Source of the DNA: Ostreococcus lucimarinus
Lineage: Eukaryota
NCBI GenBank assembly: GCA_000092065.1
Contig: CP000595.1
DNA length: 64,000 bases
Reading direction: 5' to 3' (one strand)
The position numbers and the translations under genes were made by a program. Below the pieces are notes generated by a model, which saw only the letters and a list, made by a program, of their open reading frames with translations, had not been told where the DNA came from and did not search any database. Below are positions 1,420-63,950 of this stretch, piece after piece (the stretch's first letter is position 1; every line of letters starts with the position of its first letter).

Positions 1420-4092
1420 GTGGCGTCGCGTCTGATCGTCCGATCGACCCGCGGCGACGCGATGGCGCTCGGCGCGCGCGCGACGACGCGGGATTTCGCG
1501 ACGGGCGCGACGCGCGTCGCGCGACGACGACGACGACGCGCGACGACGACGACGACGACGCGGGATGTCGCGACGCGGGCGCGCGGTGACGACGGTGACG
1601 CGCGACGCGTCGCGCGCGCGGCGGTCGGCGACGACGCGGCGCCGATGGCGAGCGAGGACGGGGCGACGGCGACGGGGTCGGCGAGACGCGCGCTGGGGCG
1701 AGCGCTGAGCGTCGACGACGACGACGCGCCGGGACGACCGTCGGCGCTGATGAAGACGCCGCGACCGACGGTGAAGCCGACGAAGGTGCCGCGGTGGTTG
1801 GCGCCGCTGGTGGATCAGTATTTCGTCGATCACAAGGCGCAGGCGAGGGCGCTGCGAGAGGGTCGGAGGTGGGACGGCGAGGCGGAGGATAGGGAGTACG
1901 CGGCGGCGTTTAAACTGTTCAAGACGGACGAAAGCGAGCGACCGGTGGAGATGACGTATCTGTTGGAGGATTACCCGAAGTTGTTGAAGCGGATGGGGAA
2001 GATGCGCAAGGCGCGACGGGCGAGTCGGGCGCAGCGGGAGGACACGTACCCGGATCCCGACACGAAGACTGTGAAATTCGGGTACCAGCGAATCGCGGAG
2101 AAGATGGGCGTGTACCCGCGCATCGATGGCGAGGCGACGTACGCGCAGTTTTTGGAGTACCTCGAACGACGCGAGGTGACGCGGGTGTTGCTCTACGAAG
2201 AGGGGAACATGGCCATCGCGGAGATGGGCGGTCCGGCGACGCACTTGGATCCGAACGTCGACGTCATTCGGTGGAAGGTGCAAATCCCGGGCGACGCGCA
2301 CGATGAGGTGACGCGGGCGTGTCTGAAAGCGTTTTACACGAAACCACACAACCCGGAAGATTTGTTCACTCCGGCGCAAACGCCGTGCCACCTGTTCATG
2401 AACATCAAGCCTTGGAACGTGGGCGTGCACGGCGCGCGCAACTGGCTCATGGCGTCGACGTTTTTCTACCTCGCGGGTACCGTGTGCAAGGGGGTGATTC
2501 AGGCGGACAAGGATCCCGAGGTCAAAAAGCGACGCGCGTTGAGGCAAAAGATGAAGAACGAGCGCGCGGCGCTCGCGGGGCAGATGGGAAAATCCAAGGC
2601 GAAGCTGGTGAAGAAGAACCAATCCAAGGTGCGCTTCAAAGACGTCGCCGGTCAAGACATGGTGGTGAACGAATTCCAGACCATCATCGACGTCATGAAG
2701 GGCAATCCGAAATACAAGGGGCGTTACGTCGAGCCGCCGAAAGGGATCTTGTTGGAAGGACCGCCCGGCACGGGGAAGACGCTCTTGGCGAAAGCCGTCG
2801 CCGGCGAAGCCGGGTTGCCATTTTTTTACGCCAACGGTTCCGAGTTTGTGGAGATGTTCGTCGGCGTCGCCGCGAGTCGCATGCGCAACCTGTTCAAGCG
2901 CGCGCGTGAAAACGCGCCGTCGATCATTTTCATCGACGAGCTCGACACCATCGGTCGCGCTCGCAACGCTGGCGAACAGCGCGACTCGTCGACGTCTGAG
3001 CGCGAGCAAGGGTTGATGCAAATGTTAGTCGAGATGGATGGTTTCGACAACAAGGAGTCCGGTTGTGAGATCTTGGTCATCGGTGCGACAAACTTGGCGA
3101 CGCAACTCGATCCAGCGCTGCTGCGTTCGGGGAGATTCGATCGCACCTATCACATCGGCGTGCCGCCGACGTCCGAGGCTCGCATGCCGATTTTGCAAGT
3201 GCACGCTCGCAACTTAAACATCGACCGCGGAGGTGACGACAAGTACGAGAGCGATGCCTTCTTACATCGCGTTGCCGATCTCACCACCGGCTTCTCCGGC
3301 GCCGAGCTCGCGAACGTGCTCAACGAAGCCGCCATCTTGAGCGTTCGCGAAGGCAAGGACTCCATCGATATCAACGACATAGAAGCCGTTTTGGAAAAGC
3401 AAGCCGTCGGTCTCATCAGCGCTCCGCTGGACGATGGTTGGGGGAAAGAGCACTTGGCCATCATCGAAGCGGCCAAGGCTGTGATTTATTCCGCTCGCCC
3501 CGAGCTCGGCCCGGAGCTGCTGCAAGTCTCCATTCGCCCTCGAGGAACGCAAATGTCTGGCCTCATCTTGACGGAGCGCTCGAGCGAAGCCGAAGCCGAG
3601 ATTCGCACCAGGATAGGTCCGGACACGCTGGGTTTGTACATCGACGCTCTCGCCGTGACGTTGACTGGTCGATGCGCAGAGTTGCACTTTTTCGGTCCCG
3701 ACGGTGTGTCCATTCGAACGAATGAAGAAGTTTCCGCGGCGGCGGAGATGGCGTTCGACATCGTCACCACGTCGGGTCTGTACCCGGATAGCAAGTTTGC
3801 GCCGCACTTCGATATGGCCATGGTTCACCAGCTCAGAATTCCTCGAGAAAATATGGAAAAAGGCACGCTCGATGTCATCCTTCGCGCGCACACCAAGGGC
3901 ATGGAACTCATTAAGGAGTATGCGCCGCTCATCGAACGCGTCGCGAACGAGCTCATGGAGAACGAACGCTTGTACGGCTCCACGGTTCGCGCAATGGTGA
4001 AGAAATACCAGCAAGAAGAACTAGGCGGCAACTTTACGCGCACGCCGTCGTTCTACGAAAGGGCGGCGATGAATAGCGCATCCAGCAATTAG
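1420..4092 (+). CDS. FtsH-like AAA+ ATPase lacking the zinc-protease HEXXH motif (FtsHi-type, plastid import-motor / Ycf2-associated family). It has an N-terminal Arg/Thr-rich presequence.
   Basis: Walker A GPPGTGKT and Walker B IIFIDELD are present, as is the second region of homology ATNLATQLDPALLRSGRFDR. The position of the FtsH HEAGHA site instead reads KEHLAIIEAAKA, so the catalytic His-Glu are lost. Confidence 0.85.
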   Translation: MASRLIVRSTRGDAMALGARATTRDFATGATRVARRRRRRATTTTTTRDVATRARGDDGDARRVARAAVGDDAAPMASEDGATATGSARRALGRALSVDDDDAPGRPSALMKTPRPTVKPTKVPRWLAPLVDQYFVDHKAQARALREGRRWDGEAEDREYAAAFKLFKTDESERPVEMTYLLEDYPKLLKRMGKMRKARRASRAQREDTYPDPDTKTVKFGYQRIAEKMGVYPRIDGEATYAQFLEYLERREVTRVLLYEEGNMAIAEMGGPATHLDPNVDVIRWKVQIPGDAHDEVTRACLKAFYTKPHNPEDLFTPAQTPCHLFMNIKPWNVGVHGARNWLMASTFFYLAGTVCKGVIQADKDPEVKKRRALRQKMKNERAALAGQMGKSKAKLVKKNQSKVRFKDVAGQDMVVNEFQTIIDVMKGNPKYKGRYVEPPKGILLEGPPGTGKTLLAKAVAGEAGLPFFYANGSEFVEMFVGVAASRMRNLFKRARENAPSIIFIDELDTIGRARNAGEQRDSSTSEREQGLMQMLVEMDGFDNKESGCEILVIGATNLATQLDPALLRSGRFDRTYHIGVPPTSEARMPILQVHARNLNIDRGGDDKYESDAFLHRVADLTTGFSGAELANVLNEAAILSVREGKDSIDINDIEAVLEKQAVGLISAPLDDGWGKEHLAIIEAAKAVIYSARPELGPELLQVSIRPRGTQMSGLILTERSSEAEAEIRTRIGPDTLGLYIDALAVTLTGRCAELHFFGPDGVSIRTNEEVSAAAEMAFDIVTTSGLYPDSKFAPHFDMAMVHQLRIPRENMEKGTLDVILRAHTKGMELIKEYAPLIERVANELMENERLYGSTVRAMVKKYQQEELGGNFTRTPSFYERAAMNSASSN

Positions 4093-4162
4093 ACACTAGC
4101 CTACGAATTAATACCAGTTCTACAACAATGATTTGCTATTTTCTAAAAGCAAAGCTTTTCTT

Positions 4163-7100
4163 CTACGCGGCGCCCCTCGTGTTGCGACGCACTTCGACGT
4201 AGTGCTCGACGGCGTAAGACACACAGTTTGGACACGCGACCGCGCACTTTTGCAATTTATAGTCGCTTTCGAGTAACATGGACGACAGGGGTAAATCCAG
4301 AATCTTCAATCTCGCCTTTGCGTCGTTGACTTCGCGCTGCAACTCTTCAGAGCCGTAGCGGTGTCCGCACGTGAATGCCCAGCACTGCGCACCGTCGACT
4401 GAAGTCAGAGAGTCCAGTTCCATCGCGTCGAAAGCTCGCGTTTGAACAAACTCGGGGGAATCCAGGCGAGATGCTAGATCTTGCTTGATTTTCAACCAAA
4501 CGCTTTCGATTGTAGCGCCATCCTTCGAAGAATACTTTGACTCGTCCTCGGCTACTCGTTTCGTCGCGACGGCGAGAATGAATTGACCGCTGAATTGAAA
4601 TCCGAGATCACTTTGCAGTACAACTTGCATAGCCTCTGCGTGACCTTGAGAGACGAGTACGTCAAGAAACAAACGTTCGAGTTCGTCGATAGGCAATCCA
4701 TTCCTTTGCCAGCATCGTGCTACGTCTTCGATTGATTTCACTTGCGCGCGCGTGTCGACCACCCGCGCGACGTACGTCTCGACGCCCAGCTCGAGCTCAG
4801 CCTGTAAGGTTGACGGCGACGTCTCGCCCACAGCGGCGAGCTTTTGAACAGCGGCCACGTGGCACATAGCGGCGGTGGCAAAGTCTTCCATCTGTGACGC
4901 TGCCAACTCGGTGATGCGAAACTTTCGCTTGTCCAGACACTTGGACGCGATCCAACCAAACAACTTTGGATCGTCTTCCAACATGACTTCGATGCGCTCG
5001 GCAAGAGCGTTTTCGTCGTCCAAGTACAAAAGTATCGTTAGCTCGATTTCAGCTGCACCGGTGACGCCAAGATTTTTCGCCTCGCGCGCCATATCCGCGA
5101 GCGAGCGCAGCTCATCTCTCGTCAACATGTCGTACACAAGTTCCAAGGGCGACGCCTCGCACGTGTCCGTCGTGTCGCTGTCCAAACCGAGCACATGAAC
5201 GATGTCGTACAGATTTTCCATCGTCTGCGTAGCGATGACGTAGTACGTGACATTCGGATCCCAAAACACGAGTGGTTTGGACTCCCAAGTACGCACGGTG
5301 CCGCCGCTGTGCTCGGCTGCTTGCGTCATCAAATTCGCTGTGACGCCACCGAGCATGTGCAAGCTCTCAACGGTGGATGATGAGGACAACAGCATGGTGA
5401 ATAACGTTTTGATTCGATCTGAGTACTCGTTCGCCGCACACGACGAGATCACGGATGTGCTCACCGCGTTCGCAGCCTCGAACGCGACGACGGCGGCGCT
5501 CGCCGAGCACGCCACGTCGCGCTGCACGCCCGCGTCTTTGGTGGCTTCGATACCTTCACCGATGACGCGCAAAAGATCCTTCACCGCTTGTTCAGGGGAG
5601 CGTTCTTCTTTCAGGTTCAACTTTTGGAGCTTCGCTTGAATCGATTCTCCCAAATCGTGCGCGGCGGCGTTGTACGCGACTGCGTTCGACGCTTCGCACC
5701 ACGCGTGCAAATGCGCGTGCGCGGCGGCGGCCGTCTTCAACCACGAAAGGTTCGCCTGTCCTCCGTACGCCTCGACTGATTTTCCGTGGAAGTTCGTCAG
5801 TGCTTGCGACGCCTCCCACGCCTCTAAGCTCAGCGAGATGAAATCTTTGAGTGGCTTTCCAGTCTTCCCGAATAAATCGCGCGCTCGAGAGAAATTTTGT
5901 CGCTTGAGCTCCTGGCGCGCAGCCTCGACGAACACGGGCATGTGATCCTCGTCCAAGACGTGCGCGACGAGTTTTAAGCGTTCGTCTTGGTCGAGATCTA
6001 CGCTTAAAGCGTTGTCACCGAACTCGTCGCGTTCGATCGGCGCCCACGCGTCGCGGCGGGTCGAGGCAACGACCGCGTTCGGCGACATGAACGATCGCAG
6101 CGTAGACGCGATGTCGACTTTTGACTTAATTTCGTACACCCCGTACGATGTCCACAACATGCATCCGCACAGCGTCTCTCGTCTTCGCACGTACGTTTCC
6201 GGGAGCTCAGCCGCGAGGAACTTTTTTGGCACGCCCGCGGAGCGCGGCACGTGAAACGTCTGCAGCGTAAACGACTTGGAACCGTCGGTCCCGAATCTTC
6301 GCGCCAACACGTGCACGGACGCGGTGAATGAGGTTAAGTCTGCGAGATCTTCCTCACCGAAAACCGGTTCGCGCACCAAGGCGAATATTAAATCTTCAGT
6401 CACGTGCACGGCGACGGTGTGATTCGGCAACGCGTGCGTGGATTTTGGCTCGGTGGCGCGATCCACGTCGTACAACTCCAACGTACGGCGATCGATCAAC
6501 GCAGCGATGAGCGAATATCCATCGCTCTCGCCGGTCTCTTGCACGCTCAGCGTCACCTGCCGCCCCTCGCGAACGCCGTACTCATCCTTGAGCAGGTGCG
6601 CGGCGAATCCGTGCGAACCCGCGGCGTCCGGTAACGATTCAGCCTTGGTCGTCGTCTCCACCTTGCCTTTTTCGCTCGTCGACGTCTTCACCACGCGCGA
6701 CATTTTCTCCAGCATCAACGTCCAAACTTCGCCCTGAACACCGTTGATGACGAGAAATTGCTTCGTCGCGCCGCGCGCGAGCTCCGCGCTCGCGCACTTG
6801 GCGCCGACGACGCACGCGCCCAGAGGCGACCCCTCCTTCACGTCCCACGCCCGCACCTCCCCGTCCACGCCGACGCATATCCCCACCACCGGATCCTCGC
6901 GCTCGGGTTCGAGCGCGCGATACCACCACAGCGCGCTCGCCGGCTTCGGCCCTCTCGACGCCAACACCCGCATCGCCGGCGACGCCTCCGCGTCACGCGT
7001 CAACTCCAAAATCGGCACCACGTACACCCCTCCCGCGCTCGTGCAGCACAACAAGCTTTCCCCATCGCGCGAGTGCGCCATCGCGTGGATCCTCGCGCGC

Positions 7101-7588
7101 GATCCCTCGTACCACGGCGCCAACCGTTTCGTCGCGCGTCGTCTCGCCGCGATAAAATTTTCCACCTTGGCCGCTCGCGCGCTCCCGCTCGCGCCGAATC
7201 CGCTCACCGAGCACGCCAACGCGCGTCCTCGCGCGTCCGCGTCGCCCTCCTCGCCGCGCGCGCGTCCTCGCGCGCTCGACGCCGCGATGAATTCCATCGC
7301 CCCGTCGTCGAATTCTTCCCTCGCCGCCGCCTCCGCGCCCGCGCTCGCGCCGCCGTCCGTCTGCGCGTACCCGAACATGGCGCTGATGCTGAACGACCGC
7401 TCGACCGCGCCGTCGGGCGGTCGCGCGCGCGCCCGGCGCCGTCGGTCGACGCCGAGCGCGTCATCGACGACGAAGATTTCGCACTCCAATCGCGCGTCCG
7501 CCTCCGTCGACGCCCCGGACGCGTCGCGCGCGTCGCGAGCGCGCGCGTCGCGACGCTCGGCGCGCGTCTCGCGCGCGTCGGCGTCCAT
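4163..7588 (-). CDS. Large protein of 1141 aa with WD40/beta-propeller-like N-terminal regions and a C-terminal Cys/His zinc-finger-like motif. It may be an IFT-A or HOPS/CORVET-type coat protein; that assignment is uncertain.
   Basis: Long single ORF. WD-like segments include VRAWDVKEGSP. The C-terminus reads CWAFTCGHRY...CAVACPNC, a C-x4-C-x-H ... C-x3-C-x2-C pattern. Confidence 0.5.
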   Translation of the reverse strand: MDADARETRAERRDARARDARDASGASTEADARLECEIFVVDDALGVDRRRRARARPPDGAVERSFSISAMFGYAQTDGGASAGAEAAAREEFDDGAMEFIAASSARGRARGEEGDADARGRALACSVSGFGASGSARAAKVENFIAARRRATKRLAPWYEGSRARIHAMAHSRDGESLLCCTSAGGVYVVPILELTRDAEASPAMRVLASRGPKPASALWWYRALEPEREDPVVGICVGVDGEVRAWDVKEGSPLGACVVGAKCASAELARGATKQFLVINGVQGEVWTLMLEKMSRVVKTSTSEKGKVETTTKAESLPDAAGSHGFAAHLLKDEYGVREGRQVTLSVQETGESDGYSLIAALIDRRTLELYDVDRATEPKSTHALPNHTVAVHVTEDLIFALVREPVFGEEDLADLTSFTASVHVLARRFGTDGSKSFTLQTFHVPRSAGVPKKFLAAELPETYVRRRETLCGCMLWTSYGVYEIKSKVDIASTLRSFMSPNAVVASTRRDAWAPIERDEFGDNALSVDLDQDERLKLVAHVLDEDHMPVFVEAARQELKRQNFSRARDLFGKTGKPLKDFISLSLEAWEASQALTNFHGKSVEAYGGQANLSWLKTAAAAHAHLHAWCEASNAVAYNAAAHDLGESIQAKLQKLNLKEERSPEQAVKDLLRVIGEGIEATKDAGVQRDVACSASAAVVAFEAANAVSTSVISSCAANEYSDRIKTLFTMLLSSSSTVESLHMLGGVTANLMTQAAEHSGGTVRTWESKPLVFWDPNVTYYVIATQTMENLYDIVHVLGLDSDTTDTCEASPLELVYDMLTRDELRSLADMAREAKNLGVTGAAEIELTILLYLDDENALAERIEVMLEDDPKLFGWIASKCLDKRKFRITELAASQMEDFATAAMCHVAAVQKLAAVGETSPSTLQAELELGVETYVARVVDTRAQVKSIEDVARCWQRNGLPIDELERLFLDVLVSQGHAEAMQVVLQSDLGFQFSGQFILAVATKRVAEDESKYSSKDGATIESVWLKIKQDLASRLDSPEFVQTRAFDAMELDSLTSVDGAQCWAFTCGHRYGSEELQREVNDAKARLKILDLPLSSMLLESDYKLQKCAVACPNCVSYAVEHYVEVRRNTRGAA

Positions 7589-10406: not shown

Positions 10407-11456
10407 ATGCCGGAAGACGCCGCGACAACCGACGCCGTCGCGCGCGCCACCGCGACGCTCGGCGACGCGCGCGCGCCGACGCCCGCGCGCTTCTCCGCGC
10501 TCTTCCAGCTCCGCGCGCTCGCGACGCCCGACGCCGTCGACGCGCTCGTCGAGCGGCTGCGCGCGTCGCGCTCGGATTCGGCGCTCGTGCGGCACGAGTG
10601 CGCGTTCGCGCTGGGGCAGATGCGCGCGCGACGCGCGATCGACGCGCTGATGGAGACGCTGCGGGACGGCGACGACGACGGGATGGTTCGACACGAGTGC
10701 GCCGAGGCGCTGGGCGCGATCGCGAGCGACGATGGACGATGCGCGACGGCGCTGAGGGAAGCGGCGGGGGATGCGCGCCGGGAGGTGGCGGAGACGGCGG
10801 CGCTGGCGCTGAGGAAACTGGAGATGTGCGGCGCGGGGGGCGCGAGGGACACGGGGAGCGCGACGGGGAGCGCGAAGGAACGCGCGAGTCGACGACGCGA
10901 CGACGGAGGGACGACGGGGGGGGCAGAGGAGGGTAAAACGGAGACGACGTGTTTGAGCGTCGATCCGATCCCGGCGATGCCGACGGAGACGCCGTTCGAG
11001 CGATTGAAGGCGGTGGTTTTGGACGACGCGCACGAAATGTGGGAGCGGTACGCGGCGATGTTCGCGTTGCGGAATAAATCGTGCGCCGATCGAGAATCCA
11101 GCGACGCGTGCGCGGACGTCCTGGGCGAGGTTTTGAGCGCGAGCGGGAGCGCGCTGCTGAAGCACGAGGTGTGCTACGTGTTGGGGCAATTACAGAGCGC
11201 GAGCCCGGGGGCGCGAGACGCGTTGATTCGATGCCTCGAAGACTCGCGCGAGCACCCCATGGTGCGTCACGAAGCCGCCGAAGCGCTCGGATCGATCGCG
11301 CATCCGAGCACGCGAGGGTACCTCGAGTCGTTCGCGTCCGATCCCGAGCCCATCATCGCCGAATCGTGCGAAGTGGCGCTCGAAATCATGCGCCGAGAGC
11401 GCGAGGGCGAAATCGTCACCGCCGACGGCGCCGTCGTCGCCGTCAAACGCGACTGA
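10407..11456 (+). CDS. DOHH: Deoxyhypusine hydroxylase (DOHH).
   Basis: Four His-Glu HEAT-repeat motifs: VRHECAFALGQM, MVRHECAEALGAI, LKHEVCYVLGQL and MVRHEAAEALGSI. This is the di-iron HE-motif architecture diagnostic of DOHH. Confidence 0.85.
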   Translation: MPEDAATTDAVARATATLGDARAPTPARFSALFQLRALATPDAVDALVERLRASRSDSALVRHECAFALGQMRARRAIDALMETLRDGDDDGMVRHECAEALGAIASDDGRCATALREAAGDARREVAETAALALRKLEMCGAGGARDTGSATGSAKERASRRRDDGGTTGGAEEGKTETTCLSVDPIPAMPTETPFERLKAVVLDDAHEMWERYAAMFALRNKSCADRESSDACADVLGEVLSASGSALLKHEVCYVLGQLQSASPGARDALIRCLEDSREHPMVRHEAAEALGSIAHPSTRGYLESFASDPEPIIAESCEVALEIMRREREGEIVTADGAVVAVKRD

Positions 11457-53773: not shown

Positions 53774-56700
53774 TCAGAAGAACTTCTTCACGAGATGACG
53801 CTTTAAAACCTCGGATGAACACGAAGGACACTTGCCAGGACCTTTTGGCTTGACGAGACGAAGCCAACAGGCGTAGCACGCGATGTGCTTGCAGGTGGAC
53901 GCCTCGAAGGGCTTGTCGCACGTGGCGCCGCAGGCGACGCACGCGCGAGGAGGAGCGACGACAGCCAAGCCGGGAGGGGCGCCAGCGGCGGATTTCTGAG
54001 CCTTGACTTTTTCTTGACGCTCTATCAGAGCGCGGCGATGCTTTTCGTAGATGGGCTTGTGCGCCGCAGGGACGAATTCGCCGAAGAGGGCGTACAAGCC
54101 TTTCGGGTTCTCCGGCGCCTTGAGCACGCGACTGGCGACGCGAAGGAGGTCACCAATATCGAACGCCTCGGTCTTCACTTTGTCAAGCTCGGCGATGAGT
54201 TCGTCGTAGGAATCACACGAGAGTTCAAGACGCGCACGACGCATAAAAAGCTTGGTACGATCTGCGCTCGGCGGCGCCTCGTTTTGATCGCTCGCGCTCG
54301 CCGAGTCCTTCTCATTCTGCTGCCCACTCGTCTTTGAGAGCTGAAGGAGAAGGGTCGACCTTTTCATCGCCTCTTGCGTTTTTTTACCATGCTTTTCGCG
54401 GAAGATTTCTGCTGCCGTCGTTTGAAGCGGGACTTTTTGCTTTGACACAAGCATAAACTTTTGGCGAGCCACTTCGTCTTCGCCACCACCTTGGTCCTTC
54501 GTGAATTGACGAACGAGCGACGTGATCGACGTACCCGCTTGCGTGAAATCTTGTTTGTTCTGTGACTTTTTCACGAAAGCAGCGCCCGAGGTTTTTGGTT
54601 TCACCTGCGCGATATCGACGAATTTGGCGGGCGCGGCGGCTTTCACCTTTGCGCCCGCTCTCGCGTGCTCTTGGAAGAATTCCTTCAAGCCGTGCACAGC
54701 ACTGTGAAACACCGAGTGCACTTGCACTGACGGTCGAAGCCAAAGTGAAAGTTGATTTCGCGCGTTTTCGTTCGCGAAACGCTCGTCGGCAAGGATAACG
54801 GCGCCGAAGTCATCCTTGTGGCGAATGACACGCCCAAGCGCCTGGTTCACTGCGCGCATCGCGGTTTGAGAGTACCACTCGTTCCCAGAGTACGCACCCC
54901 CGTTGTCCGCTTTTCGCTTATCCAAATACGTTCGCTTGTGCATCACGAGTGGATCCTTCGCGCCCGCGTACGGAATACCAGTGAGAATCACGCCACGGCA
55001 CGCCTTGTCTGCGAAATCGATGCCTTCGCTCAGCTTACCCCTACACACGGCGAAGAACGCCGCACCGCGCCTCGAATCCTCTTCAAGCGCCTTGTTGTAG
55101 CTATCGTAGCACGCATGAAATTCATCTGCATTGCTTGGCTCAACCAAGCACGTTTTGTTCGTCTCGAGCTGGTTCCAAAGCCCAGTCGATCTCCAGTGAT
55201 TGACGCACGAGTGCATGACGCCGTACGACGGAAAGAACACGAGCAATCCATCGGGTACGATTCTTGCCGTACTTAAAATCACGCTCCCTATCTCTGTCTT
55301 ATACTCGCGCGTATCGCGAAATCTAAATGAGCTGTTCAGCACGCCGTTATTCGGCCCGTGCGTGACGACTCCGCCCCAAACTTGATTCCTTTTGATCACG
55401 TGCGGATTCTCCAAGCGCACGGGAAAATCCAATGCGAGCTCTGACGCGAAAGATTCCATGGGGGAGAGCGTACCAGAGGCAAGCAAAAATGTTCCAACGC
55501 CTTTATCGATCAGTGCCTTGAGGCAAAGACCTGGAAAGAAGCACCAGTACGACAACGTCGGCCCGGCGCGCGCGCGATTGCTTGTCTTAAACTTCTCCAT
55601 ATCCGGCCCAAGTCTCGTGACGAAATACTGCTCATATCGATGCACGAATATCCTCTCTATGAAATTACCGATTTCCATTAACGGTGTTTCGTTTTGTGTC
55701 GGCTGCGCCATGAAATCGCTCCCGAGTTGCACCGTCCGCGAAGCGCTCTTAATGAGCTTTGTGATGTGCTCGTAAGTATCCGCCGTGATGTTCAACTCGG
55801 CGAGAATAACGTAGATGAACGCGCCGTCACCAATACGCTCGCCGAGACCTCCTTCGTGCTTGGCGTTCGGCGCCTTGGCCGCCTCACGACAAATACTATC
55901 GAGCAACCCTTCGAGTTGCACCAACACGCCCGTTAACATTTTAAAATCTTCACCCTTGAACGCCGCAGCGTCCTTGTCCATCCCTCTGCTAAAAAGTTGC
56001 AAATCTGCCTCGCTCACGATTCCTTCCCCGCTAGTGTCTTCTAAAGTCAACTTTGTCTCGTAAGCTCTCTCCGATTCCTTGATGGCTTTCGCCAATTTCG
56101 CCGCGGTGAGGGAATAACTCATGCTATCAGAAGCGCTCGACTCGAGGTTGTGCGCCTCGTCCACGATAATCACCGCGTTCTCCCACGCGATTTCCAATCC
56201 TTTGCGCACGCTCTCATCGAGCAGGTAATTATAAGGCATAAAAATTATCTCCGCCTCCGCGCACTTCGTGCGGGCGAGATAAAACGGACACGGCCCCCTC
56301 GCCTTGGCCTTGGACACCAAATCCTCGATGTCTTGCACGCCGTCGCTGAATAAATCGAATCGCCCATCCCGCCCCTGCAGCGCCCGATCGAGCGTCACTT
56401 TCGCCCCACACTTTTGCTGCTGCACCAATTTAGCGCATCTATTTTTCTGTTCCGTCCCATTCAACGCTCGAACGTCGTCCCGCGCGCACGCGTGCCGCCG
56501 ACTCGCGAGCGTCGTCGCGCGCGTCGTCGAATCAAACAATTTCAACTCTCGCACCACTTGATCCACCTGCGAGTGCGTCCTCGTCGCGTACACAATCACC
56601 GGCGCGCGCGTGCGCTCCTTTTTTTCCACGTCATCCACGAACTCCCGTCCCGACGTCCCCGCGACGTCGTCGGCGTCTCCGGCGCCGCCTCGCCCATCTC

Positions 56701-57085
56701 TCACTTCCTCCCTAAATTTCCGCTTCCTTGCCCGTCCTTCGCTCCGCACGAACGCCAGCGCGCTCGCAAGCAAGCACAGCGTCTTCCCCGTGCCCGTGGG
56801 CGACTCCAAGAGCGCGTGTTCGCCGCGACACATCGCCAAGAGTGCTTTTTCCATGAAAACGAGCTGATTGTCGTACGCTTCGAACGGAAAGTCAACCGTG
56901 AACGCGCGCTTGTGCGCGATCTTGACCCCGTCCGCGGGCACGGTGATGGTGTACGAGTGCATCGTGCCCATGATGCGGCCGAGCGCGGCGGACGACGCCG
57001 CGCGCGCCGCGCGGCGGAGTGATGATGGAGAACGCGAAGGGACGACAGCTGGGGCGCGGCGTTTGAAATCGAAAGCGACGGACAT
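53774..57085 (-). CDS. Rad3/XPD-family Fe-S DNA helicase (RTEL1/FANCJ-like) with a C-terminal C4C4 RING-like zinc finger.
   Basis: Walker A LLESPTGTGKTLCLL, a DEAH box IVDEAHNLE, and four Fe-S-cluster Cys (RRHACARD…CAKLVQQQKCGAKV…CPFY). The N-terminus YTITVPADGVKIAHKRAFTVDFPFEAYDNQLVFM is typical of this family. The C-terminus is CVACGATCDKPFEASTCKHIACYACWLRLVKPKGPGKCPSC. Confidence 0.8.
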   Translation of the reverse strand: MSVAFDFKRRAPAVVPSRSPSSLRRAARAASSAALGRIMGTMHSYTITVPADGVKIAHKRAFTVDFPFEAYDNQLVFMEKALLAMCRGEHALLESPTGTGKTLCLLASALAFVRSEGRARKRKFREEVRDGRGGAGDADDVAGTSGREFVDDVEKKERTRAPVIVYATRTHSQVDQVVRELKLFDSTTRATTLASRRHACARDDVRALNGTEQKNRCAKLVQQQKCGAKVTLDRALQGRDGRFDLFSDGVQDIEDLVSKAKARGPCPFYLARTKCAEAEIIFMPYNYLLDESVRKGLEIAWENAVIIVDEAHNLESSASDSMSYSLTAAKLAKAIKESERAYETKLTLEDTSGEGIVSEADLQLFSRGMDKDAAAFKGEDFKMLTGVLVQLEGLLDSICREAAKAPNAKHEGGLGERIGDGAFIYVILAELNITADTYEHITKLIKSASRTVQLGSDFMAQPTQNETPLMEIGNFIERIFVHRYEQYFVTRLGPDMEKFKTSNRARAGPTLSYWCFFPGLCLKALIDKGVGTFLLASGTLSPMESFASELALDFPVRLENPHVIKRNQVWGGVVTHGPNNGVLNSSFRFRDTREYKTEIGSVILSTARIVPDGLLVFFPSYGVMHSCVNHWRSTGLWNQLETNKTCLVEPSNADEFHACYDSYNKALEEDSRRGAAFFAVCRGKLSEGIDFADKACRGVILTGIPYAGAKDPLVMHKRTYLDKRKADNGGAYSGNEWYSQTAMRAVNQALGRVIRHKDDFGAVILADERFANENARNQLSLWLRPSVQVHSVFHSAVHGLKEFFQEHARAGAKVKAAAPAKFVDIAQVKPKTSGAAFVKKSQNKQDFTQAGTSITSLVRQFTKDQGGGEDEVARQKFMLVSKQKVPLQTTAAEIFREKHGKKTQEAMKRSTLLLQLSKTSGQQNEKDSASASDQNEAPPSADRTKLFMRRARLELSCDSYDELIAELDKVKTEAFDIGDLLRVASRVLKAPENPKGLYALFGEFVPAAHKPIYEKHRRALIERQEKVKAQKSAAGAPPGLAVVAPPRACVACGATCDKPFEASTCKHIACYACWLRLVKPKGPGKCPSCSSEVLKRHLVKKFF

Positions 57086-58943: not shown

Positions 58944-59402
58944 TCACCCGCATCCGGCGCCCGAGGACGCGTCGCCCGTCAACCCTAAATCATCCGCGCT
59001 CAGCTCGCGCTCGAGGGCCTCGATGATCTCCAGCGCGCTCGGCGGTCGGCCTCGCGAGAGCGCGCTGAACGCGGCGTCCTTCGCGCGCGCCCCCTCGAGA
59101 TCCGCCTCTCCCGACCCATCGTCCAGGCTGTCGCACACCACCACCTCGAACGCCCCCGGTCGAGGTCCCGCGTCGCCGACGACGCGCGCGTCGTTGCCGT
59201 CCACCATCAATCGCGGGAACGCGTCCTCGACGGCGTCGGCGACGGCGAGAAATGCATTTAAATGCTTCCCTTCGTCGTATTCGACGTGAATCGTCCTCGG
59301 CGGCGCGTTCCCGAGCGCGCTTCGTCACGCGTACGCGCGGTAGACGACGCGCGCGCGAAGTCGCTCGCATCCGCGCCGCGCGAGCGCGCGGAGCGCGGAC
59401 AT
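58944..59402 (-). CDS. SelW/Rdx-fold-like small protein. Its ATG at 59402 is in frame with an internal TGA at 59327..59325 (candidate selenocysteine or readthrough). The track shows only the TGA-downstream part, 58944..59210.
   Basis: Minus-strand translation gives MSALRALARRGCERLRARVVYRAYA-TGA-RSALGNAPPRTIHVEYDEGKHLNAFLAVADAVEDAFPRLMVDGNDARVVGDAGPRPGAFEVVVCDS…AAFSALSRGRPPSALEIIEALEREL. This aligns with the SelW pattern VRVVYCGAUGY…LEDEFPGRL…GFFEV.V.G.L.FSK…GGFP….LI.AI. No ATG lies between the TGA and the conserved domain. Confidence 0.4.
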
Positions 59403-59465
59403 GACGACGTCGAAGCGGCGAAACGTCGCGCAGTGACGCTTTATCCGGGACACCGCGACGTCACG

Positions 59466-60500
59466 ATGACGCGCGTCGCGCGGCGGCTGCGACGCGCGAG
59501 CGCGACGCTCGCGCGCGCGATGACGTCGATGGTTCATCACTCCGCGACGCGGCACGCGCCGGGGGCGAACGGCGCGGTGCCCGTGGTGCATCACGCGAGC
59601 TACAGCAAACCAGTCATGCCGCGCGGGCACAGATTTCCGATGACTGTTTTCCAGCGCGTGCACGACATCCTGCGCGAAGAGGGCGTCATCGCGAGAGGGC
59701 AGACGAATTGCTTCGTCCCGGGACGCGCGCCGAGCGTGGACGAGCTGTGTCGAGCGCACGATGAAGATTACGTGAGAGACGTGCGCGCGAGCGCGCTGGA
59801 CGCGAAGCGCGAGAGAGAAATCGGACTGCCGTGGAGCGACGCGCTCGTGGAGAGAACGCTGATGGAGGTTTCGGGGACGATGCTGACGGTGGATTTGGCG
59901 ATGAAGGTGGGATTGTGCGTGAACACGGCGGGAGGGACGCATCACGCGCATCGCGATAGGGGGAGCGGGTTTTGCATCGTCAACGATTTGGCGGTGTCGG
60001 CGCTGAGGGCGATCGATTCGGGGGCGGTGTCGAGGGTGATGATTATAGATTTAGACGTGCATCAAGGCGATGGGACGGCGGCGATTTTAGCGAACGAACC
60101 GGGCGTGTTTACGTTTTCGGCGCACGCGAAGTCTAATTTTCCGGCGCGAAAGCAACAGAGCACGCGAGACGTCGAGCTGCCGCGCGGGATGACGGACGAC
60201 GCGTACATGGCCGTCGTCGCGGCGGCGATGCGAGAGTCTCTCGAAGACTTTCGGCCAGAGTTGGTGATTTACGACGCAGGCGTGGACGTGACGTCGAACG
60301 ACACACTCGGACATCTCGATCTCACCGTCGAAGGGCTGTATCGACGCGAGCGCATGGTGATGGACACCGTGCTCGGCGCCGGCATTCCCCTCGCGGGGGT
60401 CGTCGGGGGTGGGTACTCACCGGATATAGATGAGCTCGCGAGTCGTCACGCAGTCTTGCATCGCGTGGCGCGCGAAATGTTCGTCGATCACGGGTTGTAA
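59466..60500 (+). CDS. Histone-deacetylase-fold (arginase/deacetylase superfamily; HDA/AcuC-like) protein.
   Basis: …PVVHHASYSKPVMPRGHRFPM…GGTHHAHRDRGSGFCIVNDLAV…VMIIDLDVHQGDGT…FTFSAH contains the HDAC signatures (HH..Y, GG.HHA……GFC..ND, D.D.HHGDG). The start was set to in-frame ATG 59466, because the track start at 59262 overlaps the divergent minus-strand gene. Confidence 0.75.
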   Translation: MTRVARRLRRASATLARAMTSMVHHSATRHAPGANGAVPVVHHASYSKPVMPRGHRFPMTVFQRVHDILREEGVIARGQTNCFVPGRAPSVDELCRAHDEDYVRDVRASALDAKREREIGLPWSDALVERTLMEVSGTMLTVDLAMKVGLCVNTAGGTHHAHRDRGSGFCIVNDLAVSALRAIDSGAVSRVMIIDLDVHQGDGTAAILANEPGVFTFSAHAKSNFPARKQQSTRDVELPRGMTDDAYMAVVAAAMRESLEDFRPELVIYDAGVDVTSNDTLGHLDLTVEGLYRRERMVMDTVLGAGIPLAGVVGGGYSPDIDELASRHAVLHRVAREMFVDHGL

Positions 60501-60521
60501 ACTAAATTAATAGTATCGTAG

Positions 60522-61403
60522 TCATCCGGCATCTGTGACCCGTCGCCGTTCTTCGTCGATCTCCGGTAGCAACGCGTCCACGCGCGCCGCTCTGTGCGCT
60601 TCGTCATACAGTCGTCTGTGCTCTCGCCAGAAAGGCAAGATTTCGCGAAGGGAGACGTGCCCGCCGTCGGCGTCGTGTCGATGCCGATGTCGAGAAAGTG
60701 CGATTTCGAGACCGATTACCGCGTCGGCGTCCGGGAGAATCGGCATCGCTACTTTTTCCCAGGTGAGTCGTAGACTCTGCGCGTGTGGATGCTCTCGCTC
60801 AATCAGGAAGAGTATGACTTCCATGTTCCCATTTGACATGGCACAAAAGTACGTCTTCGCGTCCCAAGGACACCCGTGCTCGTGCGCGTACTTCAAACAC
60901 TCCAAATGTCCATAATTGGCGGCATACCAGCACGTCCACACGTTCCAAGGACACCCTTGCTCGTGTGCGTACTTCAAACACTCCAAATGTCCATTCTTGG
61001 CGGCATACCAGCACGTCTCCTCGTCCCAAGGACACCCGCGCTTGTGCGCGTACTTCAAACACTCCAACTGTCCATTCGAGGCGGCATCACGGCACGTCCA
61101 CACGTCCCAAGGACACCCGCGCTCGTGCGCGTACTTCAAACACTCCAAATGTCCATAACGGGCGGCATTCGCGCACGTCTTCGCGTTCCAAGGATACCCG
61201 AGCGCGCGCGCCTCTACGAGAAGGTCCAACCTCCCCACGGCGGCGCACGCACCAGACACAGTTCCTTGCGCATCCTCTTCCGGTCGTATACCGTCGTCCA
61301 AGGTGGCGATAGCATCCTCAATTGTGTTTCTATACAACCAGTCCACGTTTTCTTCCGCGATTGCCACGAGCGCGGCTCTCAAACGCGCCTGAACTTCACT
61401 CAT
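60522..61403 (-). CDS. Ankyrin-repeat protein, paralog A (5 repeats of the NGHLECLKYAHE.GCPWD..TC type).
   Basis: Repeats …RYGHLECLKYAHERGCPWDVWTCRDAASNGQLECLKYAHKRGCPWDEETCWYAAKNGHLECLKYAHEQGCPWNVWTC…. The ATG at 61403 gives MSEVQARLRAALVAIAEE. GC content is below the window average. Confidence 0.7.
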   Translation of the reverse strand: MSEVQARLRAALVAIAEENVDWLYRNTIEDAIATLDDGIRPEEDAQGTVSGACAAVGRLDLLVEARALGYPWNAKTCANAARYGHLECLKYAHERGCPWDVWTCRDAASNGQLECLKYAHKRGCPWDEETCWYAAKNGHLECLKYAHEQGCPWNVWTCWYAANYGHLECLKYAHEHGCPWDAKTYFCAMSNGNMEVILFLIEREHPHAQSLRLTWEKVAMPILPDADAVIGLEIALSRHRHRHDADGGHVSLREILPFWREHRRLYDEAHRAARVDALLPEIDEERRRVTDAG

Positions 61404-61572
61404 GTGTGTCTCGCGAGTCGATGTGTGAGGACGCGCCGCCGATAGTCGCGCTCGACCACTCGATGACATTTTCAAGCGCGATCGTATCGTACGACGCGGC
61501 GATTCAGTGACGATAAACTAAACTAATCGTAGGTAGGGAGGTGCACGTTACATCATCGCGTCGTCATCGTCG

Positions 61573-62697
61573 TCATCCGGCATCTGTGACCCGTCGCCGT
61601 TCTTCGTCGATCTCCGGTAGCGACGCGTCCACGCGCGCCGCTCTGTGCGCTTCGTCATACAGTCGTCTGTGCTCTCGCCAGAAAGGCAAGATTTCGCGAA
61701 GGGAGACGTGCCCGCCGTCGGCGTCGTGTCGATGCCGATGTCGAGAAAGTGCGATTTCGAGACCGATTACCGCGTCGGCGTCCGGGAGAATCGGCATCGC
61801 TACTTTTTCCCAGGTGAGTCGTAGACTCTGCGCGTGTGGATGCTCTCGCTCAATCAGGAAGAGTATGACTTCCATGTTCCCATTTGACATGGCACAAAAG
61901 TACGTCTTCGCGTCCCAAGGACACCCGCGCTCGTGCGCGTACTTCAAACACTCCAAATGTCCATACTTGGCGGCATACCAGCACGTCTTCGCGTCCCAAG
62001 GACACCCTTGCTCGTGCGCGTACTTCAAACACTCCAAATGTCCATTCTTGGCGGCATACCAGCACGTCTCCTCGTCCCAAGGACACCCGCGCTTGTGCGC
62101 GTACTTCAAACACTCCAACTGTCCATTCGAGGCGGCATCACGGCACGTCCACACGTCCCAAGGACACCCGCGCTTGTGCGCGTACTTCAAACACTCCAAC
62201 TGTCCATTCGAGGCGGCATGCGCGCACGTCCACACGTCCCAAGGACACCCGCGCTCGTGCGCGTACTTCAAACACTCCAAATGTCCATTATTGGCGGCAA
62301 ATGAGCACGTCGACGTGTTCCAAGGACACCCGTTCTCGTGCGCGTACTTCAGACAGTCCAAATGTCCACCATCGGCGGCATCCATGCACGTCTTCTCGTC
62401 CCAAGGACACCCGTGCTCGTGCGCGTACTTCAAAATCCTAAAATATCCAGACGAGGCGGCATTCGCGCACGTCTTCGCGTTCCAAGGATACCCGAGCACG
62501 CGCGCCTCTACGAGAAGGTCCAACCTCCCCACGGCGGCGCACGCACCAGACACAGTTCCTTCCGCATCCTCTTCCGGTCGTATACCGTCGTCCAAGGTGG
62601 CGATAGCATCCTCAATTTCTTCTTCATACAAAGCGTTCACGTCTTCTTCCGCGATTGCCACGAGCGCGGCTCTCAAACGCGCCTGAACTTCACTCAT
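61573..62697 (-). CDS. Ankyrin-repeat protein, paralog B (9 repeats). The N- and C-terminal regions and the flanking non-coding DNA are near-identical to paralog A.
   Basis: The same MSEVQARLRAALVAIAEE N-terminus and …MSNGNMEVILFLIEREHPHAQSLRLTWEKVAMPILPDADAVIGLEIALSRHRHRHDADGGHVSLREILPFWREHRRLYDEAHRAARVDA(L/S)LPEIDEERRRVTDAG C-terminus as paralog A. It has more internal repeats. Confidence 0.7.
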   Translation of the reverse strand: MSEVQARLRAALVAIAEEDVNALYEEEIEDAIATLDDGIRPEEDAEGTVSGACAAVGRLDLLVEARVLGYPWNAKTCANAASSGYFRILKYAHEHGCPWDEKTCMDAADGGHLDCLKYAHENGCPWNTSTCSFAANNGHLECLKYAHERGCPWDVWTCAHAASNGQLECLKYAHKRGCPWDVWTCRDAASNGQLECLKYAHKRGCPWDEETCWYAAKNGHLECLKYAHEQGCPWDAKTCWYAAKYGHLECLKYAHERGCPWDAKTYFCAMSNGNMEVILFLIEREHPHAQSLRLTWEKVAMPILPDADAVIGLEIALSRHRHRHDADGGHVSLREILPFWREHRRLYDEAHRAARVDASLPEIDEERRRVTDAG

Positions 62698-62887
62698 GTG
62701 TGTCTCGCGAGTCGATGTGTGAGGACGCGCCGCCGATAATCGCGCTCGACCACTCGATGACATTTTCAAGCGCGATCGTATCGTACGACGCGGCGATTCA
62801 GTGACGATAAAGCGCTCGTGATTCTATAATCTATTCGAACGCGTCTACTTCTAGTCCTTCCGGCGCGCCATCGTCGCGACGGCGCGT

Positions 62888-63859
62888 CTAAACCTCTACG
62901 TCTAATCTCGCGAGCAAATCGTCAATGCGATGCAACGCCTCGCTCGCCGCCGGCGGACAAAACTGGCGCGCGCGCTCGAGCAAGTCGCGTATCTTCTCCG
63001 TATCCGCGGGTTTCCGTTCGTCCGCGGCGGATTTCAACAACCAAACCGCCGTCCTGTACGCATCATCCGCCAACGACGCGTCCGTATCGCTCCAACCCGT
63101 CTCCGAATCGGCGCCTTCGGCGTCGTGGAACTCGTCGCCGGCGTCGTCAAAGTCTCGCGAGTCGTCGAACTCGTCATCATCGCGCGAAACGAATTCGTCG
63201 TCATCACCCTCGTCCTCGTCCTCTTGTTCCAGCAAAGCTCGCGTCTGGGCGATCGTTTTCAACAACTTTTCCTTGGCCTCCGTCATCGAGCGAGGACAGC
63301 ACGACTCCGCGTACACAAATCTTCGCAACGCCTCGTTCAAATCGCCCCGTTTCAACGCGCGCACGCCAGCCTTAAACTCTTCATCCGCGATCACGGCGTC
63401 TTCATCGTCATCCCGCTCGTCGTCTTCATCGTCGACGTCCGAATCCCCCGAAGCCGCCGCCGCGCTCGCGTCGCCGTCTTCGTCCACTTCGCGCGCCCGT
63501 CGTCCCCACTCATCCTCCCCAGGTTTCGCCGCGCCGTAAATAACCGAACACGCATCCATCGCGTACCCTCGCCGCGCCCGCCGAGCCGCGTTTTCTTCAA
63601 TCTCTCGCTCCGCGCGTCGCATCAAATCCATTGGATTCTGATTTTGCATTTGATTCTGCGCTCGTTTCTGATTCTGATTCCGTCCTTCGCGCGCGCGCGC
63701 GCTCGACGCGCTCGCGCCGTCGTCGCGCGTCGCGTCGGCGACGCCGCGCTCCATGTCGACGGACTCCCGCGCGGACGCGCGCGACGAAGTGACGCGAACG
63801 AATCCAATCCAATCCAATCCACACCGGTCGGTCGCCGTCTCGGGACGACATGGGGACAC
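62888..63859 (-). CDS. Hypothetical highly acidic protein (Asp/Glu-rich, with a Gln/Asn-rich N-terminus). No family recognised.
   Basis: A 323-aa ORF with protein-like segments (…KAGVRALKRGDLNEALRRFVYAESCCPRSMTEAKEKLLKTIAQTRALLEQ…). GATTCT and CAAAAT-type short repeats encode the QNQ region. Confidence 0.4.
   Translation of the reverse strand: MSPCRPETATDRCGLDWIGFVRVTSSRASARESVDMERGVADATRDDGASASSARAREGRNQNQKRAQNQMQNQNPMDLMRRAEREIEENAARRARRGYAMDACSVIYGAAKPGEDEWGRRAREVDEDGDASAAAASGDSDVDDEDDERDDDEDAVIADEEFKAGVRALKRGDLNEALRRFVYAESCCPRSMTEAKEKLLKTIAQTRALLEQEDEDEGDDDEFVSRDDDEFDDSRDFDDAGDEFHDAEGADSETGWSDTDASLADDAYRTAVWLLKSAADERKPADTEKIRDLLERARQFCPPAASEALHRIDDLLARLDVEV
63803..63823. repeat. Pentanucleotide microsatellite (AATCC)4.
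   Basis: Direct reading shows aatccaatccaatccaatcc. Confidence 0.8.
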
Positions 63860-63892
63860 CTCTCAGACGGCACTCTGAGACGCGCCGCTCGC

Positions 63893-63950
63893 TCGAACGA
63901 ACGAACGAACGAACGCGACCGAACGAAAAAAACGAACGAACGAAACCCTT
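63893..63950. repeat. (GAAC/CGAA)n tetranucleotide-type microsatellite.
   Basis: gaacgaacgaacgaacgaacgcgaccgaacgaaaaaaacgaacgaacgaaac. Confidence 0.7.

Follow-up and report, generated by a model that had tools for sequence, protein, structure and literature searches.

An ankyrin-repeat family of the Mamiellales, family HOM000035 of pico-PLAZA, is known from the analysis of the Bathycoccus genome (Moreau et al. 2012, PMC3491373). In the passages of that paper used here, 149 copies are given for Bathycoccus prasinos, 56 for Micromonas CCMP1545, nine for Micromonas RCC299, 17 for Ostreococcus lucimarinus, and six each for Ostreococcus RCC809 and O. tauri; many copies are tandem duplicates, no function is assigned to them, and the family is enriched among Bathycoccus genes with non-green nearest neighbours. 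The present work deals with two adjacent ankyrin-repeat genes, here called A and B, on the minus strand of a 64-kb stretch of contig CP000595.1 of O. lucimarinus CCE9901 (hereafter the window). The pair is probably a recent tandem copy of a lineage-specific gene with shortened ankyrin repeats, which is of Ostreococcus origin, exchanges its repeat units in register and varies on one face of a helix.

Like the members of HOM000035, genes A and B join ankyrin repeats to sequence without a database match and are tandemly duplicated. The passages of Moreau et al. (2012) used here place the repeats of that family at the C-terminus, whereas those of A and B are central and are followed by a conserved module of 90 amino acids; the 27-residue period, the variable helix face and the population variation of A and B are not described in these passages. 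A second system for comparison is Bodo saltans virus with its 148 tandem ankyrin genes of 4 to 17 repeats per gene, interpreted as an arms-race 'accordion' (Deeg et al. 2018, PMC5871332). Genes A and B share with these viral arrays the short CLKYAHE/GCPW repeat flavour, the tandem arrangement in the same orientation and the presence of near-identical recent duplicates. Unlike giant-virus arrays, they consist of two copies only, lie in a cellular chromosome between conserved housekeeping genes, carry a C-terminal module restricted to Ostreococcus and are not accompanied by viral gene fragments. With canonical ankyrin domains and designed ankyrin repeat proteins (DARPins) they have in common the stacked helix-turn-helix solenoid, as judged from Pfam and Foldseek matches and from a predicted structure of the gene A product. 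In their evolutionary mode only, they also resemble the repeats of transcription activator-like (TAL) effectors, in which units are near-identical at synonymous sites, few specificity codons differ and unit number changes in register; fold, ligand (DNA) and organisms are unrelated, and there is no family relationship.

Both open reading frames (ORFs) are read from the ATG of MSEVQARLRAAL (MSEVQ). Gene A (60522..61403, minus strand; ATG at 61401-61403, stop codon at 60522-60524) encodes a protein of 293 amino acids. Its paralog, gene B (61573..62697, minus strand), encodes 374 amino acids, i.e. exactly 81 amino acids or three repeat units more. The two adjacent minus-strand ankyrin genes reported in a preliminary description of this region were thus recovered, with Pfam scores far above the gathering cut-offs: gene B reached 83.9 bits for Ank_4 (cut-off 22.7), 64.6 for Ank_2 (27.3) and 41.6 for Ank (21.1), gene A 60.6, 50.5 and 36.3 bits, respectively, so that both belong to the ankyrin superfamily (PF00023/PF12796/PF13637) by profile. 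In an exact look-up the gene A product proved identical to XP_001421728.1 (UniRef A4S899, 'Ankyrin repeat protein') of O. lucimarinus CCE9901, from a 468,366-bp record, and the window is therefore nuclear DNA of this alga and the region a pair of paralogous nuclear genes. Exact look-ups of the gene B product, both as a 374-amino-acid and as a 396-amino-acid version, were negative in a collection of 15 billion proteins; gene B may be unannotated or differently modelled in the reference genome. An exact look-up for contigs encoding the gene A product gave no match. The encoded proteins are soluble and consist of three parts: a short acidic helical N-terminus, an ankyrin solenoid of 27-residue repeats, and a C-terminal module of about 90 residues.

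The extent of the duplication was determined by blastn self-alignment and inspection of the breakpoint sequences. Copy 1 (60498..61513) comprises gene A with its 3' flank and 114-bp upstream region, and copy 2 (61514..62811) comprises gene B with its flanks; the duplicated unit is thus an entire gene with flanks, arranged head-to-tail. The tetranucleotide TAAA is present at the left edge (60498-60501, where it overlaps the stop codon of a histone-deacetylase-family gene), at the junction (61514-61517) and at the right edge (62808-62811). This shared 4-bp sequence would fit an illegitimate, microhomology-type exchange. No transposon features are present; a search for transposon ends and terminal inverted repeats around the duplicated unit yielded only chance-level inverted matches of 14-16 nucleotides. 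Copy 2 is longer than copy 1 by 243 bp (three units) plus an insertion/deletion of about 35 bp in the 3' untranslated region (UTR). Metagenome contigs L002 and L003 have the longer 3' flank of the B type after the deacetylase stop codon (11237-11299), so that the shortness of this flank in gene A (60498-60521, compared with 61514-61572 in gene B) is probably derived, through a deletion of about 35 bp.

The preliminary description had claimed near-identical termini and promoter-proximal DNA and had suggested a self-alignment as a check; when this was run, the flank identity held. The segments 60515-60814 and 61566-61865 are 99% identical, and the two copies differ at one of 330 positions in the C-terminal coding part and at one of the 114 nucleotides upstream of the ATG. 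The N-termini differ by 13 mismatches, 11 of which are clustered in a hypervariable patch at 61324..61349 of gene A (minus strand; ENVDWLYRNT), with its counterpart EDVNALYEEE at 62618..62643 of gene B (minus strand). The flanks of A and B differ by about 0.5%, a value near the diversity that wild relatives show in the neighbouring genes, and the duplication is either recent or has been homogenised. The most likely origin of the pair would be an unequal exchange that placed two pre-existing alleles in tandem. Two captured alleles are proposed because both N-terminal patch types, besides others, occur separately among the metagenome alleles described below.

The repeats were parsed into units by means of Tandem Repeats Finder and the 27-codon register. 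Tandem Repeats Finder reported a period of 81 with 4.3 copies at 60860-61211 and 7.5 copies at 61902-62505. The array of gene A (60852..61175, minus strand) contains four well-formed units of 81 bp (27 codons), bounded by a degenerate C-terminal cap at 60771-60851 and an N-terminal cap at 61176-61256. In gene B, seven well-formed 81-bp units (61903..62469, minus strand) lie between a C-terminal cap at 61822-61902 and an N-terminal cap at 62470-62550. As each parse gives two caps plus four or seven units, the total repeat numbers are 6 for gene A and 9 for gene B. A 26-mer quoted in the preliminary description was found nine times at one mismatch or less (none expected), with a spacing of 81 bp within each gene. 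The internal DNA repeat given there as 99 bp is hence one of 81 bp, and the repeat numbers of 5 and 9 become 6 and 9.

The units, numbered Au1 to Au4 and Bu1 to Bu7, are related in a manner that points to exchange between them. Au2 and Bu5 are identical over all 81 positions, Au4 and Bu7 differ by two mismatches, and Au3 and Bu6 by five. Au1 is equidistant from Bu3 and Bu4 (seven mismatches each) and has the start CANAA in common with Bu1, and Bu4 looks like an additional in-register copy between Bu3 and Bu5. Array lengths thus change in exact 81-bp register, and the unit map contains hybrid and duplicated units, the pattern expected of unequal exchange or slippage in this register. The earlier suggestion of unequal crossing-over or conversion among units is borne out both by this map and by metagenome length variants that differ in steps of 27 amino acids. 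In summary, the gene pair, the homogenised flanks and the near-identity of units at synonymous positions stand from the preliminary description, whereas its unit length and repeat counts do not, and the contrast in GC content that it drew is weak.

The unit consensus reads T-C-x-x-A-A-x-x-G-H-L-E-C-L-K-Y-A-H-E-x-G-C-P-W-D-x-x. Among the 11 well-formed units of the reference only two synonymous differences were found, 32 of the 34 variants changing the amino acid, and the mean pairwise divergence was 0.19 at nonsynonymous (dN) and 0.07 at synonymous sites (dS). The differences are located at positions 2, 3, 6, 7, 9, 18, 19 and 24-26, and in Bu1 and Bu2 only also at positions 10-12. When the 43 distinct DNA units of this locus from the reference and from metagenome contigs were pooled, amino-acid entropy was highest at position 2 (3.4 bits), followed by positions 3 and 6 (2.8 each), 26 (2.7), 25 (2.5), 7 and 19 (1.8 each) and 9 (1.05), with at most 0.8 bits at each of the remaining positions.

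An AlphaFold2 model of the gene A product (unit 1 beginning at residue 77) had a mean predicted local distance difference test (pLDDT) score of 79.9, with values above 90 over residues 30 to 180 approximately. It contains six helix pairs that recur every 27 residues, i.e. the stacked helix-pair solenoid of the ankyrin superfamily; DSSP assigned no strands. In a Foldseek search against the PDB the top matches were ankyrin proteins, FEM1C and DARPins, the latter with a root mean square deviation of 2.1-2.9 A over about 190 columns. Unlike the canonical repeat of 33 residues with its beta-hairpin or long loop, the unit is six residues shorter (the Ank profile aligns over its positions 8 to 31 or 32 of 33) and has no predicted beta-hairpin. 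Its counterpart of the TPLH tetrapeptide at the start of helix 1 reads T-C-x-x, with T retained, P exchanged for C, and hypervariable positions where L and H would stand. The units would accordingly represent a shortened ankyrin variant that lacks five residues of the hairpin loop and one of helix 1 and has TPLH changed to T-C-x-x.

In the model, helix 1 extends from position 25 to position 6 of the next unit, and helix 2 comprises positions 10-18. The variable positions 25, 26, 2, 3 and 6 are spaced i, i+1, i+4, i+5 and i+8 and thus form one face of helix 1, while the invariant residues T27, C1, A4 and A5 are located on the opposite face. Helix 1 of canonical ankyrin domains forms the lining of the concave binding groove. 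Positions 6/7, 25/26 and 19 of the unit presumably correspond to the DARPin positions 13/14, 2/3 and 26 (alignment by eye), which were reportedly randomised in the 2003 design of Binz and colleagues. By analogy with canonical domains and DARPins, the variable helix face may be a ligand-binding groove, and the proteins may be protein-binding adaptors whose specificity is under diversification, most plausibly in a biotic conflict such as a virus-host interaction. A diversity-generating retroelement was also considered as a mechanism and rejected, given that the region holds no reverse transcriptase or template repeat, that the variable codons are not adenine-specific and that the host is a eukaryote.

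Variation of the locus in natural populations was followed in metagenome assemblies, all of them from short reads. A protein search yielded dozens of close relatives that agree in both termini and have lengths of 212, 239, 266, 293 and 294 amino acids; nearly all length changes comprise whole units of 27 amino acids. The 45 metagenome proteins that were parsed contain between one and seven units, with 54 distinct unit sequences in total, and several unit types missing from the reference recur in at least five independently assembled proteins. Both the A and the B type of N-terminal patch are present among these alleles, together with other types. Contigs that span the whole interval carry one unit (L001), three units (L008, L015), four units (L007) or seven units (L016), and one further contig (L017) is more diverged.

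The flanking genes served as a reference for the level of variation. To the left of the pair lies the histone-deacetylase-family gene (59262..60500, plus strand; PF00850, 214.9 bits), and to the right a gene for an acidic protein of 288 amino acids without a family (62888..63754, minus strand; confirmed by exact look-up); both lie outside the pair and were used as synteny anchors. In metagenome contigs, the deacetylase gene showed a dN of 0.003, a dS of 0.004 and 0.024 variants per codon, and the 288-amino-acid gene a dN of 0.003, a dS of 0 and 0.007 variants per codon. For the N-terminus of the ankyrin gene the respective values were 0.058, 0.021 and 0.34, and for its C-terminal part 0.015, 0.009 and 0.12. 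The N-terminal variants comprise 23 nonsynonymous and three synonymous codon variants over 76 codons, a density about 14 times that of the flanking genes (Fisher P = 1e-15 against the deacetylase gene). Unit diversity, variant densities and unit entropies thus agree with the earlier proposal of a fast-evolving locus.

Whether this variability is adaptive is a separate question, since conversion or unequal exchange with other family members and between the tandem copies might import clustered differences into proteins whose constraint is ordinary or relaxed. The DNA framework of the units is shared by members at other loci, which thereby offer ample homology for conversion, and there are metagenome proteins (P0036, P0075, P0083, P0084, P0095) in which the N-termini of other paralogs are joined to the C-terminal half of this locus. 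One such joined gene (L009, 1315-2283) adjoins the same deacetylase gene and has a different upstream neighbour; these proteins are either real paralog recombinants or de Bruijn-graph chimeras formed via shared 81-bp units. The N-terminus also has a synonymous diversity about five times that of the deacetylase gene (0.021 vs 0.004), and the selection tests given below are not significant. Converted tracts should, however, bring synonymous differences with them, yet 23 of the 26 N-terminal variants and 32 of the 34 unit variants of the reference change the amino acid. Moreover, variation is restricted to one helix face with the framework residues invariant, and about 58 of about 58 alleles keep open frames, nearly all of their length changes consisting of whole units. 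A purely mutational origin of the hypervariability is thus considered somewhat unlikely. An adaptive counterpart would be a polymorphic specificity locus encoding a lineage-specific ankyrin adaptor whose groove, N-terminal patch and unit number are kept diverse by selection. In the arms race between Ostreococcus and prasinoviruses, such an adaptor might be a sensor or restriction factor directed against viruses, or a host factor targeted by them. In-register shuffling of 81-bp cassettes, as in TALEs, and the tandem capture of different alleles would then be the sources of new specificities. This proposal is speculative, and we regard it as unlikely.

A decaying, functionless pair of duplicates was also considered. 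In line with decay, the genes have no functional annotation, their C-terminal module belongs to no known family, the G+C content at third codon positions (GC3) is below that of the neighbours, and the gene B product is missing from the protein collection. Against decay, both ORFs are intact, the framework positions are invariant over 43 units, the caps are conserved, the C-terminal module is conserved both across alleles (dN 0.015) and in paralogs (39-56% identity), and the AlphaFold2 model is confident. Decay is accordingly given very little credence.

The origin of the gene was traced by means of its non-repeat parts. The C-terminal module (...PDADAVIGLEIALSRHRHRHDADGGHVSLREILPFWREHRRLY...) of about 90 amino acids is encoded at 60525..60800 in gene A and at 61576..61851 in gene B (both minus strand). 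In a search of 1.84 billion cluster representatives, only about ten clusters (50% identity) covered this module, which is recognisable in paralogs at 39-56% identity. One of these clusters is XP_001419030.1 of O. lucimarinus (from a 783-kb record), which has the same architecture as A and B. The N-terminal 58 and C-terminal 92 amino acids had no Pfam or PDB match, and the C-terminal module had none among Pfam families or PDB sequences at E <=10; it has low pLDDT in the AlphaFold2 model. An EF-hand-like reading of 'DADGGHVSLREI' was dropped for want of profile support and because its residues are not spaced as in the canonical loop.

Among full-length relatives from elsewhere, protein P0240 (contig L029), with a recognisably homologous N-terminus, is the closest; the representative of its cluster (P0163) is 56% identical to the C-terminal query. 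P0240 is encoded at a different locus, between genes of the PGAP1 and His_Phos_2 families, and is the gene with the lowest GC3 of its own neighbourhood. All Ostreococcus-type members examined share the framework codons TGC..GCC GCC..GGA CAT TTG GAG TGT TTG AAG TAC GCG CAC GAG..GGG TGT CCT TGG GAC..ACG, from which those of the single viral gene examined differ. At residues identical to L029, the same codon is used at 92.7% of positions in the units, 87% in the N-terminus and 66% in the C-terminus; because the value for the units is merely moderately above those of the termini, no special nucleotide-level constraint is claimed. Taken from sequence comparison, the non-repeat parts of the pair point to Ostreococcus, and the gene would have come from another Ostreococcus paralog and not from a virus. 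In proteins from outside Ostreococcus, an unannotated N-terminal module '..IPxYLxxSxFYxxL..DD..IxVPxxCFKxD..' was seen in front of 27-amino-acid ankyrin arrays (P0018, P0027, P0031, P0033, P0048, P0052, P0056, P0060, P0068, P0091, P0094, P0109, P0110, P0118); this combination appears to be a widespread domain architecture in marine metagenomes.

Related lineages were then compared at the syntenic site. A metagenome lineage represented by contigs L026-L028, whose deacetylase is 79% identical and thus closer than that of O. tauri (68%), is collinear with the window over genes for a helicase, NOT2, the deacetylase, the ortholog of the 288-amino-acid protein, HSP20 and GMP synthase. In these contigs the ortholog of the 288-amino-acid gene follows 105 bp past the deacetylase gene, and no ankyrin gene is present between the two. 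Likewise, two O. tauri assemblies contained no ankyrin homolog within 6 kb of the deacetylase gene. Syntenic orthologs in related algae, which the preliminary description had named as evidence that would speak against its interpretation, were thus not found in these two Ostreococcus lineages. As no ankyrin gene is present at the syntenic site in two related lineages, the gene is lineage-specific at this site, and a single gain would be the simpler reading of the distribution.

A gene missing from related lineages might have been acquired by recent horizontal transfer from a giant virus or prasinovirus, as a foreign island of lower GC content. The repeat flavour that the preliminary description had linked to giant viruses is indeed shared with them. 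A profile scan of IMG/VR, with [EDV]CL[KER]YA[HR]E as array motif, found CLKYAHE-type arrays in 105 viral stretches, among them GVMAGs and genomes of pandoravirus size; of about 350 motif spacings, 283 equal 27 amino acids, so that flavour and period both agree with those of A and B. The best named viral matches, to Bodo saltans virus, reach at most 63% identity over the repeats. Unlike the viral arrays, the pair does not sit in a viral genome periphery or form a long tandem array, given its two copies and its conserved cellular flanks, which are collinear with O. tauri and with the lineage of L026-L028. A shared flavour is no evidence of viral origin, because consensus-like repeats match at 40-65% whatever their ancestry, as any consensus-like ankyrin array does, and the viral matches cover the repeats only.

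A scan for close relatives among 2.9 million viral contigs returned a single locus with 51% identity, again over the repeats only. This match (L010, 3816-5114; IMGVR_UViG_3300031637_000813) is located between genes for a capping enzyme and RNA polymerase subunit 2. It is itself a high-GC island in a contig of about 40% GC, with 56% GC over a 2-kb block, and carries the Micromonas-like flavour 'LQWARANGCPW', which suggests transfer from alga to virus, if the contig is not chimeric. More generally, 27-amino-acid ankyrin genes of 62-68% GC were observed in giant-virus contigs of about 40-48% GC (L010, L049, L051, L054 [GVMAG-M-3300025626-8] and L064), which suggests either algal genes captured by viruses or chimeric contigs or bins.

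Base composition was the other ground on which a foreign origin could be argued. The segment 60501-62820 has a GC content of 0.573, compared with 0.627 for the window, and in 13% of windows of equal size the value is no higher. GC3 is 0.636 in gene A and 0.652 in gene B, against a mean of 0.759 (standard deviation 0.068) in 29 neighbouring ORFs (z of -1.8 and -1.6), and the two genes rank second and third lowest when each is set against these ORFs. Low GC3 is gene-wide, with 0.61 in the N- and C-termini and 0.70-0.72 in the units; a derivation from A- or T-ending framework codons of the repeats was rejected, the non-repeat termini being lower than the units. Stretches poorer in GC were noted at 4001-6000 (0.548) and 54001-56000 (0.540), and these fall in long housekeeping-type ORFs, at 4163-7588 and in an RTEL-type helicase gene at 53774-57085 with a GC3 of 0.672. 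GC heterogeneity of this size is normal in the window. The lower GC content noted in the preliminary description is therefore real (57.3% vs 62.7%) and mild, with two stretches lower still, and the codon usage check against the neighbours likewise gave a mild deviation.

Viral transfer would be favoured by the GC3 of 0.64-0.65 against a neighbour mean of 0.76, by the ankyrin gene missing from the syntenic site, by the abundance of the 27-amino-acid CLKYAHE flavour in giant-virus contigs and by the enrichment of ankyrin repeats among Bathycoccus genes with non-green nearest neighbours mentioned at the outset (PMC3491373, in the passages used here). A further point in its favour is that the relative on L029 also has the lowest GC3 of its neighbourhood. 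Against viral transfer, the nearest relatives are Ostreococcus paralogs that share the N-terminus, the C-terminal module with its roughly ten clusters and the framework codons; the sole viral match of close pattern is a high-GC gene in a virus contig of 40% GC; and the GC deviation lies inside the range of the window. Recent viral acquisition is therefore considered very unlikely. Of the interpretation first proposed for this region, unequal exchange, giant-virus-like flavour and fast evolution are upheld, whereas horizontal acquisition is not supported in view of Ostreococcus genes as nearest relatives, the genus-restricted C-terminal module and the common framework codons.

Several points weigh against a recent tandem duplicate under diversification and have to be set beside the evidence in its favour. 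Every spanning metagenome contig contains a single gene, and the A-B junction is seen only in the reference: an 18-mer of the junction (TCAGTGACGATAAACTAA) was present in none of the fetched metagenome loci. Contigs L002-L006, L011-L014, L018 and L021 end inside or just upstream of the array, and short-read assemblies may collapse or chimerise units and paralogs. The selection tests are marginal: the binomial P value is 0.06 when the reference units are tested and 0.10 in the N-terminal sample from populations. The ratio of nonsynonymous to synonymous variants, 23:3 compared with 9:3 in the flanking genes, gave a Fisher P of 0.36, and over all unit positions the variant classes of 15:71, compared with 13.7:67.3 sites, are near the neutral ratio. 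As these tests are marginal or non-significant, positive selection is not claimed. Absence of the gene elsewhere could reflect two losses instead of one gain, and the suggested adaptor function is drawn from the fold and the pattern of variation.

The single-gene contigs and the missing junction could also mean that the tandem pair is an artefact of the reference assembly, in which allelic or paralogous reads of one gene were laid down twice. The two copies, however, differ in the N-terminal patch, in unit content, in the 35-bp 3'-UTR indel and in one private base in the upstream region of gene A, and their junction sequence is unique. A duplication of this kind is one that short-read assemblers should collapse or split, and many contigs indeed end at this place. 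Furthermore, the reference is a finished assembly which we take to stem from a clonal, haploid culture, in which case two distinct sequences imply two loci. An artefact thus appears extremely improbable. Neither recent viral acquisition nor an assembly artefact nor pseudogene decay is likely, and the interpretation preferred here remains that of a recent tandem copy of a lineage-specific Ostreococcus gene.

Beyond the pair, the 64-kb window contains no further family member. The opposite (plus) strand of the arrays holds long open frames of up to 381 amino acids (61541-62686, 60876-61445 and others); these are by-products of the periodic sequence, the ankyrin matches belonging to the minus-strand ORFs. 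Upstream of the 288-amino-acid gene (63795-63950) simple repeats were noted, with a (CCAAT)n-like run around 63800 and (ACGA/CGAA)n at about 63890-63945.

The pair itself is an ordinary recent tandem duplicate of a repeat-protein gene, presumably from a Mamiellales family that has already been reported as expanded and tandemly duplicated. Its analysis corrects a likely over-reading, in that a giant-virus repeat flavour is here no evidence of viral origin. At the same time, the locus offers a clean, small example of array evolution, with exact breakpoints, a 4-bp microhomology, an 81-bp register, a frozen framework and one varying helix face. The contrast that ocean metagenomes show between near-invariant neighbours and a variable ankyrin gene makes the latter a candidate determinant of interaction specificity at the level of strains, for instance towards viruses, in an alga of ecological importance.

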